Below are positions 14,590 to 19,324 of a DNA stretch of 21,040 bases, piece by piece. The DNA is taken from positions 1 to 21,040 of the forward strand of contig CAXGWI010000053.1 of the NCBI GenBank assembly GCA_964013405.1, in the 5' to 3' direction. The notes under the pieces are model-generated. The model ran no database searches. It saw only the letters and a list, made by a program, of their open reading frames with translations, and was not told the DNA's origin. Position 1 is the stretch's first letter. Each line of letters opens with the position of its first letter. This DNA is from an uncultured Myxococcales bacterium (GTDB lineage Bacteria > Myxococcota > UBA4151). The translations under genes were made by a program, and so were the position numbers.

Positions 14590-15017
14590 ACCTACTTCTT
14601 TCCACCCTCCTTCTTGTGCAGGGCGCCCCAGCGCTATCGAGCCACCATCAAGGCAGCACCAATTGGCTTGAGGGCTGTGTCGCAACCCACAAAGCCCTGT
14701 TCAAAGGCGACGAGAAAACCGCGGCCAAAGCGCTCAAGGGCATGCTCCTCTACAAGACCACGCCGCAAGCGGCACGGCAGCTTTTGTTGAACATCCCGAA
14801 AGGCCTCAAAGCCCAACGAAACCTCTTCAAGAAGGTCAGCGTTCAGTGCCGGTCCCATTGGCAGAAAACGCCAAAGGACCGATCGAACTTTGTCGTCATG
14901 ACCTGTCCCATGGTCGATGCGGACTGGATCCAGAAGGCGGGCAAACTGGAGAACCCCTACGCTGCGGAAACCATGCCGCATTGTGGCTATCAGTTGCTGC
15001 CTAAAAAGAAGAAGTGA
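14586..15017 (+). CDS. Exported DUF3347-associated, putative heavy-metal-binding protein
   Basis: Signal peptide, HH, and C-terminal CPM...WIQ....LENPY....MPHCG motif as seen in DUF3347/CusB-associated proteins. Confidence 0.7.
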   Translation: MNLLLSTLLLVQGAPALSSHHQGSTNWLEGCVATHKALFKGDEKTAAKALKGMLLYKTTPQAARQLLLNIPKGLKAQRNLFKKVSVQCRSHWQKTPKDRSNFVVMTCPMVDADWIQKAGKLENPYAAETMPHCGYQLLPKKKK

Positions 15018-15556
15018 CCACCACGCGAGTCCCAAGACGAGTTTCCCGTCGCCGTCGGTGGCGAGTGGCCCCTGTCGTCTTGGTCGTGCTGCTCACTTTA
15101 ATTTGGGGCTTGAGCCGGTGGTCGCCGGAGACGCCGGCCCCAGAAGTGCTGATGGACAGCGGACCGACCACCCCCCCCTGCCCCCTCCTCATGCGTCTCG
15201 CCGACCGAGAGCGTCGCTGTGACAACGAGCCGATCGAATTGCCCGGCGAAAAGGTTGATGTGGTTTTGTTGAGCCCCCGGTGGTCAGCGGATTGCCGACT
15301 CTTGCTGCGGGACGATAAGGACCGCTTCGTCCCCTTCGACTTGGTGGCTTCCGGCGACGGAACCGCCCGGGGTACTCTAGGCCCCTTCAAGCGCCGCTCG
15401 GAGCCCTACATCCTTAGCTTCGTGGCTATCGATGAACGGCGCAATGTCGAGGACAGCTGTGGAGCCTATCAGGATGTTCGGCTGGAGTTAAGCTACCCGC
15501 CCCTTCAGTCGACGGACGCTGGGGTCGACGGCAAGGCAGAGGACAAGGCCCCCTAG
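15014..15556 (+). CDS. Hypothetical single-TM membrane protein
   Basis: GTGA overlap, Arg-rich N-terminus followed by a TM helix (VAPVVLVVLLTLIWGL), and 4 Cys in the soluble domain. Confidence 0.65.
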   Translation: MTTTRVPRRVSRRRRWRVAPVVLVVLLTLIWGLSRWSPETPAPEVLMDSGPTTPPCPLLMRLADRERRCDNEPIELPGEKVDVVLLSPRWSADCRLLLRDDKDRFVPFDLVASGDGTARGTLGPFKRRSEPYILSFVAIDERRNVEDSCGAYQDVRLELSYPPLQSTDAGVDGKAEDKAP

Positions 15557-15557
15557 C

Positions 15558-17873
15558 CTACCACATCCCGGTCCCTTGACCTTCCGGATCCAAGTAAGGG
15601 GCGATGACCTTCGCCCGAGTGGCATGCCGCAATTTGCGCAGTGCCTTCGCCTCGATCTGCCGGATTCGTTCTCGGGTCACATGGAAGTCCTGACCGACCT
15701 CTTCCAGCGTATGGTCTGATTTTTCGCCGATCCCGAAGCGCATACGCAGCACCTTTTCTTCCCGAGGCGTCAGCGTCGCAAGGACTCGACGCACAGAAGC
15801 TGCGAGATCATGACTCATGGCTGCAGCATCCGGATGGATGGCATTACGGTCTTCGATGAAGTCACCCAAGTGGCTGTCTTCTTCTTCACCGATCGGGGTT
15901 TCCAGCGAGATGGGTTCCTTGGTGATCTTAAGCACCTTCAACACTCGATCCACCGGGAGTTCCATCTTCTCGGCGATCTCCTCAGGGGTCGGCTCACGCC
16001 CGAGTTCTTGAAAGAGGGTGCGGCGGACCCGGGCCAGCTTGTTGATCGTCTCGATCATGTGGACCGGGACACGAATCGTGCGGGCTTGGTCGGCAATCGC
16101 TCGGGTAATGGCCTGGCGAATCCACCACGTCGCATAGGTGCTGAACTTGAAGCCCCGACGATACTCGAACTTGTCGACGCCCTTCATCAGGCCAATGTTG
16201 CCTTCCTGAATCAGGTCGAGGAACTGCAGTCCCCGATTCATGTACTTTTTGGCAATACTCACCACCAGGCGCAGGTTGGCTTCGATCAGGCGGGTCTTCG
16301 CTCGACGAACTTCGTCTTCGGCAAAGACAATACGATCGTAGAGATCGGCGACCTCATCAAAGGAGATTCGATTCTGCCGCTCCAGGCGCTCCAAGCGCTT
16401 CATGGCAATCTGCTGGCGGTTGAGCTGTTCCCGAAGTTCGTGCTGCCGCATGTGGGTTTGATCGGGCAGATGCTTTTCAAGGAGCTTGCGAAAGCTACCG
16501 GCCTGGGCAAACGCGAGACTGGCCAAGGTCTTCATCTTCAGATGAAAACTTCGTGCGTGGGCATCTTCGAGGTCGTCAGTGTAGGTGGCCCCCCGTTCCA
16601 CAAACTCTCGTACGGTGACCGTCAGCGCGTTCAAGGTGTTCTGATTGAGACGGAGTCGCAGGAAAGCTTCAAGCCGGTTTTCCTTAAGCCGGTTCAACTC
16701 CTCTTCCACGCTAGGCCGCTTGTCGGCCCGCACTCGGCTGAGGCGGAGTTGGTTTTCCTCGATCCGCCGCTGCACCACACGGAAGCCCTCAAAGGTGTCT
16801 AGAGAGCGAACGAGGCGCTCCTCATCGGGCATCCCCTGCTCGGTCTCGTCGGCATCCTTGATCAGATCTCGTAGACGAAGGTCGGCGTTGGCTAACTGCT
16901 CAAATCGTTCCCGCAGTGCGGTTGTGGCCAACCGGCAATCCAAGAGGACTCGGTAGACATTGTGCTCGGCTTCTTCGATCTGACGAGAGATCTCAACTTC
17001 ACCTTCCCGGTCAAGGAGAGGCACAGCCCCCATCCGACGCAGGTAGGCTCGCACGGGATCCTGGCTTGAACCTTCCCGGCGGACACTCTTTCGAGCGGTC
17101 GCTTTCTTGGCCGCCGGGCGAGCCGGCGCCTCCTTGGGGGTTTCCGTGCTCAGTTCGGCGAGCACCTCTAAGGCTGCTTCGTCACCGCTGCTGCCATCAT
17201 CATCGACTTCGGTTGCAGCCTCCATGAGGTCTTTCGCCGAAGGTTGAGCCTCGGCCTTCTTAGCGGCTTCAGCCTCGAGCGCTGCCTCTTCGGTCGCCTC
17301 GGCGTCGACCTCCTCGATGCCCTCCTGCCCTTCGCTTTCGGGCTCAGCGGCCTTCTTGGCAGCCTTCTTCTTCTTCGCAGCCGGCTTCTTGGCTGCCGCC
17401 TTCTTCTTGCCGCCGGTTGCCCGACTCGGTGCGGCAGCGCTCGCTGGCTCGGCAGCCGCAGTCGAAGCAGCAGCCTCAGTCGTAGCAGCAGCAGGACTCG
17501 AGGCTGCGGCCTTTTTCTTACGGGTCGACTTCTTCTTGCGGCCGGTCGCCCGACTCGGCGCAGCAGCACTCGCCGCCTCGGCAGCCGTCGCCGAGGCAGT
17601 AGCCTCCGCTGAAGCAGCAGGACTCGAGGCTGCAGCCTTTTTCTTCCGAGTCGACTTCTTCTTACCGCCGGTCGCCCGACTCGGTGCAGCACTCGCCGCC
17701 TCGGCAGCCGTCGTCGAAGCAGCAGCCTCAGTCGAAGCAGCAGCCTCAGTCGAAGCAGCAGCCTCAGTCGAGGCAGCGGCTTTTTTCTTCCTCGCGGCGG
17801 GCTTCCGCTTTGCCTTTGCCGCTGTTGTCTTCTTTTTCGCAGCCTGCTCAGCCGCCGTGCTTTTCTTAGCCAA
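15558..17873 (-). CDS. rpoD: RNA polymerase primary-type sigma-70 factor with a long low-complexity N-terminal extension
   Basis: Region 1.2 DPVRAYL, NCR, region 2 [13 protein letters not shown]...[10 protein letters not shown]...[25 protein letters not shown], region 3 and region 4 [29 protein letters not shown]. Probable start TTG 17873 (MAKKSTAA) with AGGAAGG SD; the ORF track extends to 17909. Confidence 0.95.
17401..17780 (-). repeat. About three imperfect 126-129-bp tandem repeats inside rpoD
   Basis: CCGGT(C/T)GCCCGACTCGG recurs at 17413, 17542 and 17668. The unit encodes approximately EAASAA(A)PSRATG(G/R)[17 protein letters not shown]. Confidence 0.9.
17713..17766. repeat. Three exact 18-bp tandem repeats (GTCGAAGCAGCAGCCTCA) encoding (STEAAA)n in RpoD
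   Basis: Exact copies at 17713, 17731 and 17749, a degenerate copy at 17767 and another exact copy at 17461. Confidence 0.95.
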
Positions 17874-18004
17874 ACCCAAGGCCTTCCTGCTCGCGCAACG
17901 CCAATCCAATGCGGAACGGCTTCAAAAACATCCGTTCCGGGAACCGTGTTTTGCCAGGCCAGCGGCGGGGTGCAAGGATATGTCCCGTAGCAGGGCGGCG
18001 GCGG

Positions 18005-18033
18005 CTTATACAGATGAACATAATCGGGTACAA
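18005..18033 (-). promoter_or_regulatory. Putative sigma-70 promoter for rpoD
   Basis: Minus strand TTGTAC (18033-18028), 17-nt spacer, TATAAG (18010-18005), in a locally AT-rich patch ~130 nt upstream of the rpoD start. Confidence 0.5.
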
Positions 18034-19324
18034 ACCCTTTCAAACACTGAAAAACTGGTCCTATGTTACCGGCTGGACCCTGGAGCTGTACCATCGTGTT
18101 CGACACGAGGGCGAAGTCGCAGACCGATGCCTTGCCTCCTTTCTTCGGCGCAATCGGCAAATCGGTTCGCGAAACAGGCGCGCTTTGGGCGATTTACTCT
18201 TCAATACCCTACGCTGGGACCTGGCTGCAGAGGCCTATGCCGACCTGGTTTTGCCAACGGAAACGTGCACGGACGCATTCCGTATCGCCGCTGGCCTGAT
18301 CCTGGCAGGCCCGTCGGAAGCTCCAAATCCCGACGTCCTGGCCCAGCACCTGGAGCTTTCGGATGCGGCCCAGCAAGCCTTGTCCTCCCTGCCCTTGCAT
18401 CGCGCTCAAGCCGAGGAACCGATCTGGACCACTGGACTCAGCCCCTACCTTTCCCACGAGTTGACCAAGATTCTTGGCGAGGACAGCTTCCATCGCTTGG
18501 CCCAGGCCTTGATGGGAACCGGGCCGGTCTGGCTACGAGCACGAGTTCCTTCGCAAACCCACCAGCTCATGAGGTCCTTAGGCCGCAGCGGTCTCTCCTG
18601 CGAGCCCTCGCCAACGCTTCCTGGGGCACTGCGACTCGAGAAGCGAGGCCCCCTGCAAAATAGCCAAGCCTATCGAGAAGGTCACTTCTGGGTACAGGAT
18701 CTGGGCAGCCAACTCATCGGGCGGCTGGTGGCCCCGGAGCCCCACCACCGGGTGCTCGATGCGTGTGCCGGTGCGGGCGGGAAAAGTCTCTGCCTGCTCA
18801 GCGACCACCCAGACTTGGATCTCACGGCCTGGGACGTGGATGAGAGAAGGCTTCAACGGCTCCATACTCGGCTCAAGCGCAGTCGCCTGGGGCCTATCTC
18901 AAGCCAAGTCATCGAGCCGGAGGGTCCCCTCCCCGAGAGCGTTGGTTCCTTCGACCGAGTCCTCATCGATGCTCCATGCTCCGGCTCCGGCACGCTTGCT
19001 GGTCACCCCGAAGGGCGCCGGCGCATCACCGCAGAGCAAGTGGGCGGCTACGCAAGGCGCCAGCGGGAAATCCTGCGCCGCTTCGCTGATCTGGTGAGGC
19101 CTGGCGGCCGGTTGATCTATGCCACTTGCTCGATGCTCAGCGCTGAAAACGAGGAGCAAGTGTCCTCGTTTCTCGAAGAAGATAAACGCTTCCAACGCCT
19201 CGATAGTCGCGACGTGCTGGGTGAGGAAATCGCAACCACGATGCAACAAGGGGTCTACCTTCAGCTTTGGCCTCACCTCCACGACAGCGATGGATTTTTT
19301 GCCGCCGTACTCGAGCGGTCCTGA
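18014..19324 (+). CDS. RsmB/NOP (Sun/Fmu) family RNA m5C methyltransferase
   Basis: VQDLGSQ, VLDACAGAGGKS, DRVLIDAPCSGSG, YATCS...ENEEQV and DGFFAAVL motifs. Start uncertain: ATG 18014 chosen, without a clear SD. Confidence 0.9.
   Translation: MNIIGYKPFQTLKNWSYVTGWTLELYHRVRHEGEVADRCLASFLRRNRQIGSRNRRALGDLLFNTLRWDLAAEAYADLVLPTETCTDAFRIAAGLILAGPSEAPNPDVLAQHLELSDAAQQALSSLPLHRAQAEEPIWTTGLSPYLSHELTKILGEDSFHRLAQALMGTGPVWLRARVPSQTHQLMRSLGRSGLSCEPSPTLPGALRLEKRGPLQNSQAYREGHFWVQDLGSQLIGRLVAPEPHHRVLDACAGAGGKSLCLLSDHPDLDLTAWDVDERRLQRLHTRLKRSRLGPISSQVIEPEGPLPESVGSFDRVLIDAPCSGSGTLAGHPEGRRRITAEQVGGYARRQREILRRFADLVRPGGRLIYATCSMLSAENEEQVSSFLEEDKRFQRLDSRDVLGEEIATTMQQGVYLQLWPHLHDSDGFFAAVLERS

Follow-up and report, generated by a model that had tools for sequence, protein, structure and literature searches.

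Can a primary sigma factor of the proteobacterial kind lose its folded region 1.1, and what may then stand in the place before region 1.2? The question is raised by the rpoD gene of an uncultured Myxococcales bacterium (phylum Myxococcota, class UBA4151), which lies in a stretch of 21,040 nucleotides (assembly GCA_964013405.1, contig CAXGWI010000053.1, positions 1 to 21,040), hereafter the window, of a genome labelled G000. The minus-strand frame at 15558-17873 encodes, from a TTG start, a 771-residue RpoD, a group-1 sigma-70 (TIGR02393 390 bits versus a cut-off of 354; PRK05658 581 versus 555), in which the Pfam families PF00140, PF04542, PF04539 and PF04545, for regions 1.2, 2, 3 and 4, all score above cut-off. 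It is the sole group-1 sigma of G000, the next match being 41% identical, and one RpoD over the cut-off was found in each of the six genomes (59-94% complete) that make up the class, a single family. An earlier note on this DNA had proposed that region 1.1 was replaced here by a histone-H1-like basic tail and an acidic block. According to our analysis, the folded domain is undetectable by profile searches in the whole class, and it is the part ascribed to the tail that has to be reconsidered.

No detectable folded region 1.1

PF03979, the Pfam family of region 1.1, was absent throughout G000 in a Pfam search, the relaxed motif G.LTY.E had no match in the window RpoD, and residues 1-271 alone matched no Pfam family at E<=1 and no NCBIfam family at E<=0.1. 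PF03979 was found in none of the six class genomes versus 32 of 35 other genomes of the phylum and, in a wider draw, in none of four class genomes versus 239 of 247 other Myxococcota genomes (the unpublished G167 being among the 247). The eight misses outside the class are of several kinds: G012, G098, G110 and G170 gave no RpoD-strength match with the query used, G069 has a divergent RpoD copy with a recognisable 1.1, and G044, G049 and G061 keep only the last 1.1 helix, with or without the strand.

A phylum-specific hidden Markov model (HMM) of 1.1, built from 39 region-1.1 segments, mostly of Myxococcota, picked up, at 10-15 bits, half-domains and distant relatives missed by Pfam, among them the half-domains L032 and L033 at 15 bits and the distant P0012 and P0017 at 11-12 bits, and gave the window RpoD -1.3 bits and its relatives at most 0.2. 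Compared with 1.1 by hhalign, the two genera of the class reached probabilities of 0.35% and 0.06%, the half-domain control 75.6%. The earlier note, which could see no folded 1.1 in the extension, is thus borne out by the Pfam scan, the relaxed motif, the phylum HMM and hhalign alike. A degenerate 1.1 within the acidic block, to which a KDLL-like resemblance seen by eye might point, was rejected on the HMM and hhalign results with their positive controls, and the acidic motif that precedes 1.1 in other families is not supported as a homologue of the block (hhalign 0.36% and 0.91%).

Other unusual N-termini were met in the phylum. L032 and L033 (family f23) and L034 (G061) are RpoDs in which nothing of 1.1 is left but its last helix and strand; they may represent an intermediate of its loss, and L032 and L033 stand at the normal rpoD locus. 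P0110 (720 residues) is an unrelated RpoD with a 234-residue acidic N-terminus and no 1.1 match, and P0164 (1198 residues) has 1.1 at its very start, followed by a long charged linker.

Composition of the N-terminal extension

The earlier note had divided the approximately 270 residues before region 1.2 into a basic tail, an acidic stretch and a short basic segment, and composition together with Pfam confirms this, region 1.2 occupying residues 272-301 (16971..17060, minus strand as all coding features of the gene; PF00140, E 3.6e-10). The Ala/Lys-rich tail, residues 1-176 (17346..17873), contains 72 Ala, 42 Lys+Arg, 20 Ser, 18 Thr, 8 Pro, 9 Asp+Glu and no aromatic residue, carries a net charge of +33 and is predicted to be disordered, with a predicted local distance difference test score (pLDDT) of 25-32 in a model on a shallow alignment. 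A repeat search placed in it a tandem array of 2.7 copies of a 126-129-nt unit of about 42 residues (17400..17744), the copies matching at 84-85%; its Lys clusters alternate with Ala/Glu spacers, so that the tail is not uniformly basic. The acidic block, residues 177-243 (17145..17345), has net charge -20 and, judging by composition, profiles and models, is the candidate disordered stand-in for region 1.1; the short basic linker covers residues 244-271 (17061..17144), with net +5 over residues 244-270.

The order of basic tail, acidic block and short basic linker is repeated in all 10 full-length family proteins, the window's and nine relatives', whose tails measure 112 to 268 residues with net charges of +33 to +88. 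The sister-genus tails are near-perfect repeats of the KPAAKKAAA type, up to 268 residues long, in proteins from 3.7-Mb contigs; the assemblies of four of the five relatives break inside the tail. Only 9 of 34,109 stop-to-stop frames of at least 60 residues in G000 pass a Lys/Ala window filter, the window rpoD included, which shows that tails of this kind are no general trait of the genome. Frames with runs of 15-35 Lys/Arg were also seen on G000 contigs C70, C151, C122, C146 and C77, mostly just after a signal-peptide-like segment, some ending at contig breaks.

Conservation is uneven along the extension. Between the two proteins of genus 1, to which the window belongs, identity is 63% over acidic block and linker, 35% over the tail and 95% over the core. 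Taken together, block and linker carry a net charge of -15 in each of the two genus-1 proteins, and in genus 2 the values are -30 to -32; the last 95 residues of seven relatives bearing 1.1 range from -2 to -20, to which the class values are similar or which they go beyond. Negative charge beside region 1.2 is therefore kept, although the sequence differs between genera.

Origin of the core

The long non-conserved region (NCR) noticed earlier is indeed present, at residues 302-524 (16302..16970): these approximately 220 residues are missed by PF04546, yet align to the NCR of a solved RpoD (PDB 9gdo_F), are mostly predicted at pLDDT 76-94 and find their best fold matches in E. coli and Vibrio sigma-70, all of which points to a proteobacterial type. 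Regions 2-4 follow at residues 525-761 (15591..16301; TIGR02393 above cut-off). When the nearest proteins were searched by regions 2-4, with the best 7,999 candidates scored, PF03979 was carried by 105 of the 116 nearest proteins outside the family, and those with names were almost all from Bdellovibrionota, Myxococcota or Deltaproteobacteria. Against solved RpoDs the window protein scored 406-430 bits for most proteobacterial entries and 316-324 for actinobacterial ones. A transfer from Actinobacteria was rejected on these nearest relatives and the lead of about 100 bits. Close proteins bear the source names Myxococcales or Myxococcota bacterium; a metagenome locus search confirmed no relatives among 406 candidates, and a genome search found one.

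The earlier note had suspected a mixed architecture, and this holds: the core is of the proteobacterial type, and the N-terminus before it, basic and then acidic, is like that of Actinobacteria. Like sigma-A and HrdB of mycobacteria and streptomycetes (PMC5511352; PMC10011835), the window protein is a group-1 sigma with no folded 1.1 and with a predicted-disordered basic-then-acidic extension before region 1.2. Unlike them it has a proteobacterial-type core with a 220-residue NCR, far better scores against proteobacterial RpoD and an extra short basic linker before region 1.2, and the class, unlike Actinobacteria, lacks a large beta-prime insert. In view of the nearest relatives, the scores against solved structures and the NCR, the likeness to sigma-A appears convergent rather than imported, and the layout would be independent in origin from that of sigma-A and HrdB.

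Basic extensions in the phylum and the history of the gene

Basic extensions are widespread in the phylum. Among 30 RpoD loci with a 1.1 match of at least 10 bits (two being half-domains; starts chosen by eye), an extension of at least 60 residues in front of 1.1 that includes a 40-residue window of net +10 or more was counted in 17, one of at least 100 residues in 12, and an acidic stretch as well in 7. L019, L020 and L024 place more than 300 basic-extension residues ahead of 1.1, and in L011 and L013, of the best-sampled family, tail, acidic block and intact 1.1 occur together. Since basic extensions coexist with 1.1 across the phylum, the tail evidently did not replace the domain, contrary to what had been proposed. 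Whether the architecture is ordinary among Myxococcota RpoDs, as the earlier note had asked, has a divided answer: the basic tail is common, whereas the 1.1-less state is rare outside the class (1.1 in 239 of 247 genomes). Other Myxococcota RpoD/SigA proteins (loci L007-L030) share the core, NCR type and region 1.2, often the Lys/Ala extension and sometimes the acidic stretch; they keep folded 1.1, many of them in the gene order dnaG-rpoD-tRNA-zinc ribbon, and the class has neither. As tails are common in the phylum, and tail, acidic block and 1.1 can occur in one protein, the simplest history would be that an ancestral tailed RpoD lost the folded domain and kept or enlarged its acidic stretch.

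In L019, L020, L021, L024, P0100, P0105 and P0168 a Lys/Ala tail is followed by a long Glu/Arg/Lys/Ala repeat, a likely single charged helix, and then by intact 1.1. In annotation it should be taken into account that gene callers often truncate tailed RpoDs at the repeats.

The gene has a changed location as well. In other families a dnaG or zinc-ribbon gene lies within the 1.5-kb flanks of 15 of 36 RpoD-like loci, with the full order dnaG-rpoD-tRNA-zinc ribbon at L061 and L063. An rpoD after dnaG was found in none of five scorable class genomes, G005 being broken at a contig end: a tRNA gene comes directly after dnaG in G000 (at 9 bp) and G001, and G002, G003 and G004 likewise have dnaG without rpoD behind it. 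Judged by gene order, the class rpoD has moved away from the dnaG operon. At L054 (G000:C23:9500-15000) and L064-L067 the usual place of rpoD is empty: genus 1 reads yqeY-dnaG-tRNA(CAT)-zinc-ribbon gene, and genus 2 has the zinc-ribbon gene after dnaG but oppositely oriented.

We considered, and rejected, that a paralogue had taken over from the dnaG-linked rpoD. A quick tree of 63 rows, for which the careful search was unfinished, joined the class to off-locus paralogues of family f24 with a support of 86 in the Shimodaira-Hasegawa-like approximate likelihood ratio test (SH-aLRT); in a careful tree of 29 rows the class had no settled place. A single genome may have as many as five RpoD-like paralogues, as seen in G054 (L037, L040, L043, L058, L059) and G059 (L038, L041), several with a divergent 1.1 and two beside a second sigma gene.

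Identity of the class to other families is lowered across RNA polymerase, to 61% versus 70% in RpoB, 64% versus 73% in RpoC and 80% versus 90% in regions 2-4 of RpoD, and a sigma-specific acceleration was rejected in view of the equal divergence of RpoB and RpoC. Inserts private to the class, both on contig C104 of G000, amount to 12 residues in RpoB (L087, frame positions 291-302), presumably in the beta lobe, and 10 residues in RpoC (L108, 235-244), presumably after a clamp helix; the latter is the largest class-only RpoC insert in a comparison with 17 other genomes of the phylum, an alignment without actinobacterial RpoC. The first RpoC residues of the class also differ from the phylum consensus. 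Other families carry RpoB and RpoC inserts of their own, so these observations establish no link of the class inserts to sigma.

Possible function of the charged N-terminus

What may the extension do? At about even chances, we suggest that the acidic stretch is a disordered, charge-based stand-in for region 1.1 and the basic tail an inherited accessory. The acidic block would lie in the basic cleft of RNA polymerase for downstream DNA, or at its edge; until displaced by a promoter, it would restrain free sigma or limit the entry of DNA. The tail may add weak non-specific DNA affinity or fold back on the block, and would be largely dispensable. A charge-dependent function would fit, because the charge of the block is kept within a genus and the block is better kept than the tail, yet it is unalignable between genera. 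The acidic face of E. coli 1.1 acts as a DNA mimic within the downstream cleft (PMC5101437), and this acidic segment stands just before region 1.2 with a flexible linker, as in the window protein (PMC5101437, PMC5511352); the E. coli domain is compact and three-helical, and none is detectable in the window RpoD. The stand-in role is drawn from deletion data on M. tuberculosis sigma-A, whose first 132 residues can be deleted and whose acidic 132-179 stretch cannot (PMC10011835). The mycobacterial extension, predicted disordered and basic then acidic, has been proposed as a gatekeeper of DNA entry, although authors dispute whether it enters the cleft (PMC5511352).

A number of points weigh against the stand-in. 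In PMC5511352, Hubin et al. hold the mycobacterial extension too large for the cleft and acting with the actinobacterial beta-prime insert, and the class has only its private inserts of 10 residues in beta-prime and 12 in beta. Several phyla are described there as lacking a recognisable 1.1, and a stand-in may therefore be unneeded. No alignment joins the acidic block of one genus to that of the other (hhalign 1.08%), as weak constraint would also lead one to expect, and the spread of tail lengths may partly reflect assembly collapse of repeats. The N-terminal models are built on 8-11 related rows, which makes them weak evidence of disorder. The class stands on a long branch, unplaced within the phylum in the careful tree, and secondary loss of 1.1 is suggested by counts, not by a rooted branch order. 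Finally, the organisms are known from assemblies alone, and every functional step is inferred.

Several other explanations have to be weighed with the stand-in. We consider it unlikely that the work is done by the tail, as a non-specific DNA anchor of the H1/Hc2/AlgP kind which would hold the holoenzyme on the nucleoid and for which the acidic block would compete intramolecularly; nucleoid tethering and self-inhibition by the tail, both put forward in the earlier note, may stand as possibilities. A strongly basic tail is kept in all 10 full-length family proteins, and in a scan for HC2 (PF07382), a low-complexity match, two of four family proteins, P0036 (43.8) and P0004 (42.5), passed the cut-off of 40; the window tail had no match, and tail sequence and length vary widely in the family. 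In having Lys/Ala/Pro repeats on a protein that acts on DNA in a GC-rich organism, the window RpoD resembles HrdB and B. pertussis RpoD (lysine repeats in print: PMC5714199; PMC7398561), AlgP, Hc2 and the H1-like domain of Anaeromyxobacter CarD (PMC2919716). Such repeats stabilise enzyme-DNA complexes in Streptomyces TopA (PMC5714199), are required for DNA binding of HupB (PMC7398561), and an H1-like domain gives DNA binding to a myxobacterial CarD (PMC2919716). Unlike these, the window tail has Ala/Glu spacers between its Lys clusters, and its DNA binding is putative. The coexistence of tails with 1.1 across the phylum leaves the loss of 1.1 unexplained by an anchor, M. tuberculosis sigma-A can do without its basic half, and its promoter binding in surface plasmon resonance was the same after truncation (PMC10011835). 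That Ser/Thr phosphorylation switches off DNA binding by the tail, as the earlier note had also offered, is barely credible: phosphorylation is known from the disordered part of M. tuberculosis sigma-A (PMC10011835) and the window tail has 38 Ser+Thr, but the nine relatives have 5-12, and conservation thus gives the switch no support.

We likewise doubt that 1.1 was simply lost in a fast-evolving lineage, leaving a weakly constrained, low-complexity N-terminus with no stand-in role. This would agree with the divergence of the class across RNA polymerase, with other lineages of the phylum that keep only part of 1.1 (L032, L033, L034), with the acidic blocks that do not align and with the phyla said to have no 1.1-like sequence (PMC5511352); it would not account for the basic-acidic-basic order and net negative charge kept in both genera, nor for the far better preservation of block and linker than of tail in genus 1. 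Very unlikely is a block that is folded or foldable, either a 1.1 diverged past recognition or amphipathic helices docking on sigma or core. Two AlphaFold2 models, the first poor even in conserved domains (mean pLDDT 49), gave the N-terminal part pLDDT 25-56, with isolated helices only. In the block they place short helices at 189-207, 213-221 and 231-240 in one model and at 188-208 and 213-221 in the other, and motifs there are kept within genus 1; pLDDT over the block is 29-56, no HMM or profile matched though half-domains were recovered, and an Atlas search with residues 172-275 scored at best 0.82, all below 0.9 and no better than shuffled sequences.

Gene start, neighbours and promoters

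The start which the earlier note placed ahead of the repeats is well supported. The TTG at 17873 has a Shine-Dalgarno-like AGGAAGG 8 nt upstream (17882..17888, minus strand, read from sequence), P0036 of the same genus opens with the same MAKK.TAA start, and in the sister genus (G002, G003, G005) the tail-opening ATG is preceded by an in-frame stop 2-6 codons upstream. After codon 1 only two further ATG, GTG or TTG codons occur ahead of region 1.2, namely 217 and 237, and neither has a clear ribosome-binding site. The codon-usage score of the tail in the sigma frame is -0.04 versus +0.18 for the core, which gives no confirmation of the tail frame, and differences between repeat units (4 synonymous versus 2 not) are too few to use. 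RNA contigs close to the window were met at 17842-17999 (X5, 0 differences), 17112-17374 (X10, 6) and 16884-17019 (X11, 1); the RNA runs contained at most 15% of the words, and such sparse matches show neither transcription nor habitat.

An RsmB/F-family RNA methyltransferase gene is the divergent neighbour (17909..19324, plus strand, start approximate), and the starts in G002, G003 and G005 are divergent from the same gene. On the other side a 180-residue protein without Pfam match (15014-15556, plus strand) is convergent with rpoD and adjoins it in all six class genomes. A promoter scanner found no match upstream of the window rpoD; by eye, a candidate at 18005-18033 (minus strand) reads TTGTAC, 17 nt, TATAAG, with a GC-rich run behind it. 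A similar motif in the sister genus is an uncertain match, as automatic alignment paired it with another G000 stretch.

A link of 1.1 loss to loss of T at -7 in promoters was also considered and was rejected. The tRNA promoters of G000 follow TTGAC-17-TA, with T at -7 in 0 of 17 loose matches; with 30 tRNA-centred loci per genome for six genomes other than G000, T at -7 was found in 1 of 25 in the class versus 4 of 42 in five other families, of which three or four keep intact 1.1. Counts of the promoter pattern over whole genomes did go with the 1.1 score (16 families, 25 genomes; Spearman 0.68), a post hoc comparison of kin that are not independent, its signal diluted by background. Over seven Myxococcota genomes of six families (G000; L137-L316) T at -7 occurred in 5 of 67 TTG-17-TA tRNA promoter candidates, a scarcity that resembles Alphaproteobacteria and fits a dependence on CdnL; a CdnL-sized PF02559 frame was found in five of six class genomes. 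In M. xanthus the rRNA promoter has already been described as having no T at -7 (PMC7703639).

Significance

Some primary sigmas are already known to have no 1.1, and others to bear lysine tails; the basic tail alone is not news. Bacteroides fragilis sigma-A, which is short and has no long extension, is reportedly a primary sigma naturally without acidic region 1.1. A full-text literature search, which covers few subscription papers, returned no paper on 1.1 loss in Myxococcota. New here is that a proteobacterial-type core with a long NCR has apparently lost folded 1.1 throughout a class, together with neighbours that have half-domains and a gene that has changed place.

The role of region 1.1 outside E. 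coli is still debated: is charge alone sufficient, and does the disordered version of Actinobacteria enter the cleft? In the class a proteobacterial-type sigma would have lost the fold and kept the charge, with close relatives that have a whole or half domain, which would offer matched sequences for domain swaps. We may even suggest, as quite an unlikely extension of the above, that the class independently rebuilt the sigma-A design on an E. coli-like core, where a two-part charged chain gates the cleft and anchors or clusters the holoenzyme on the nucleoid, with the class-only beta and beta-prime inserts as its partners, while the folded gatekeeper eroded and survives as half-domains in neighbouring families. 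If this is true, the phylum would be a natural series, whole, half and none, for asking what region 1.1 does.

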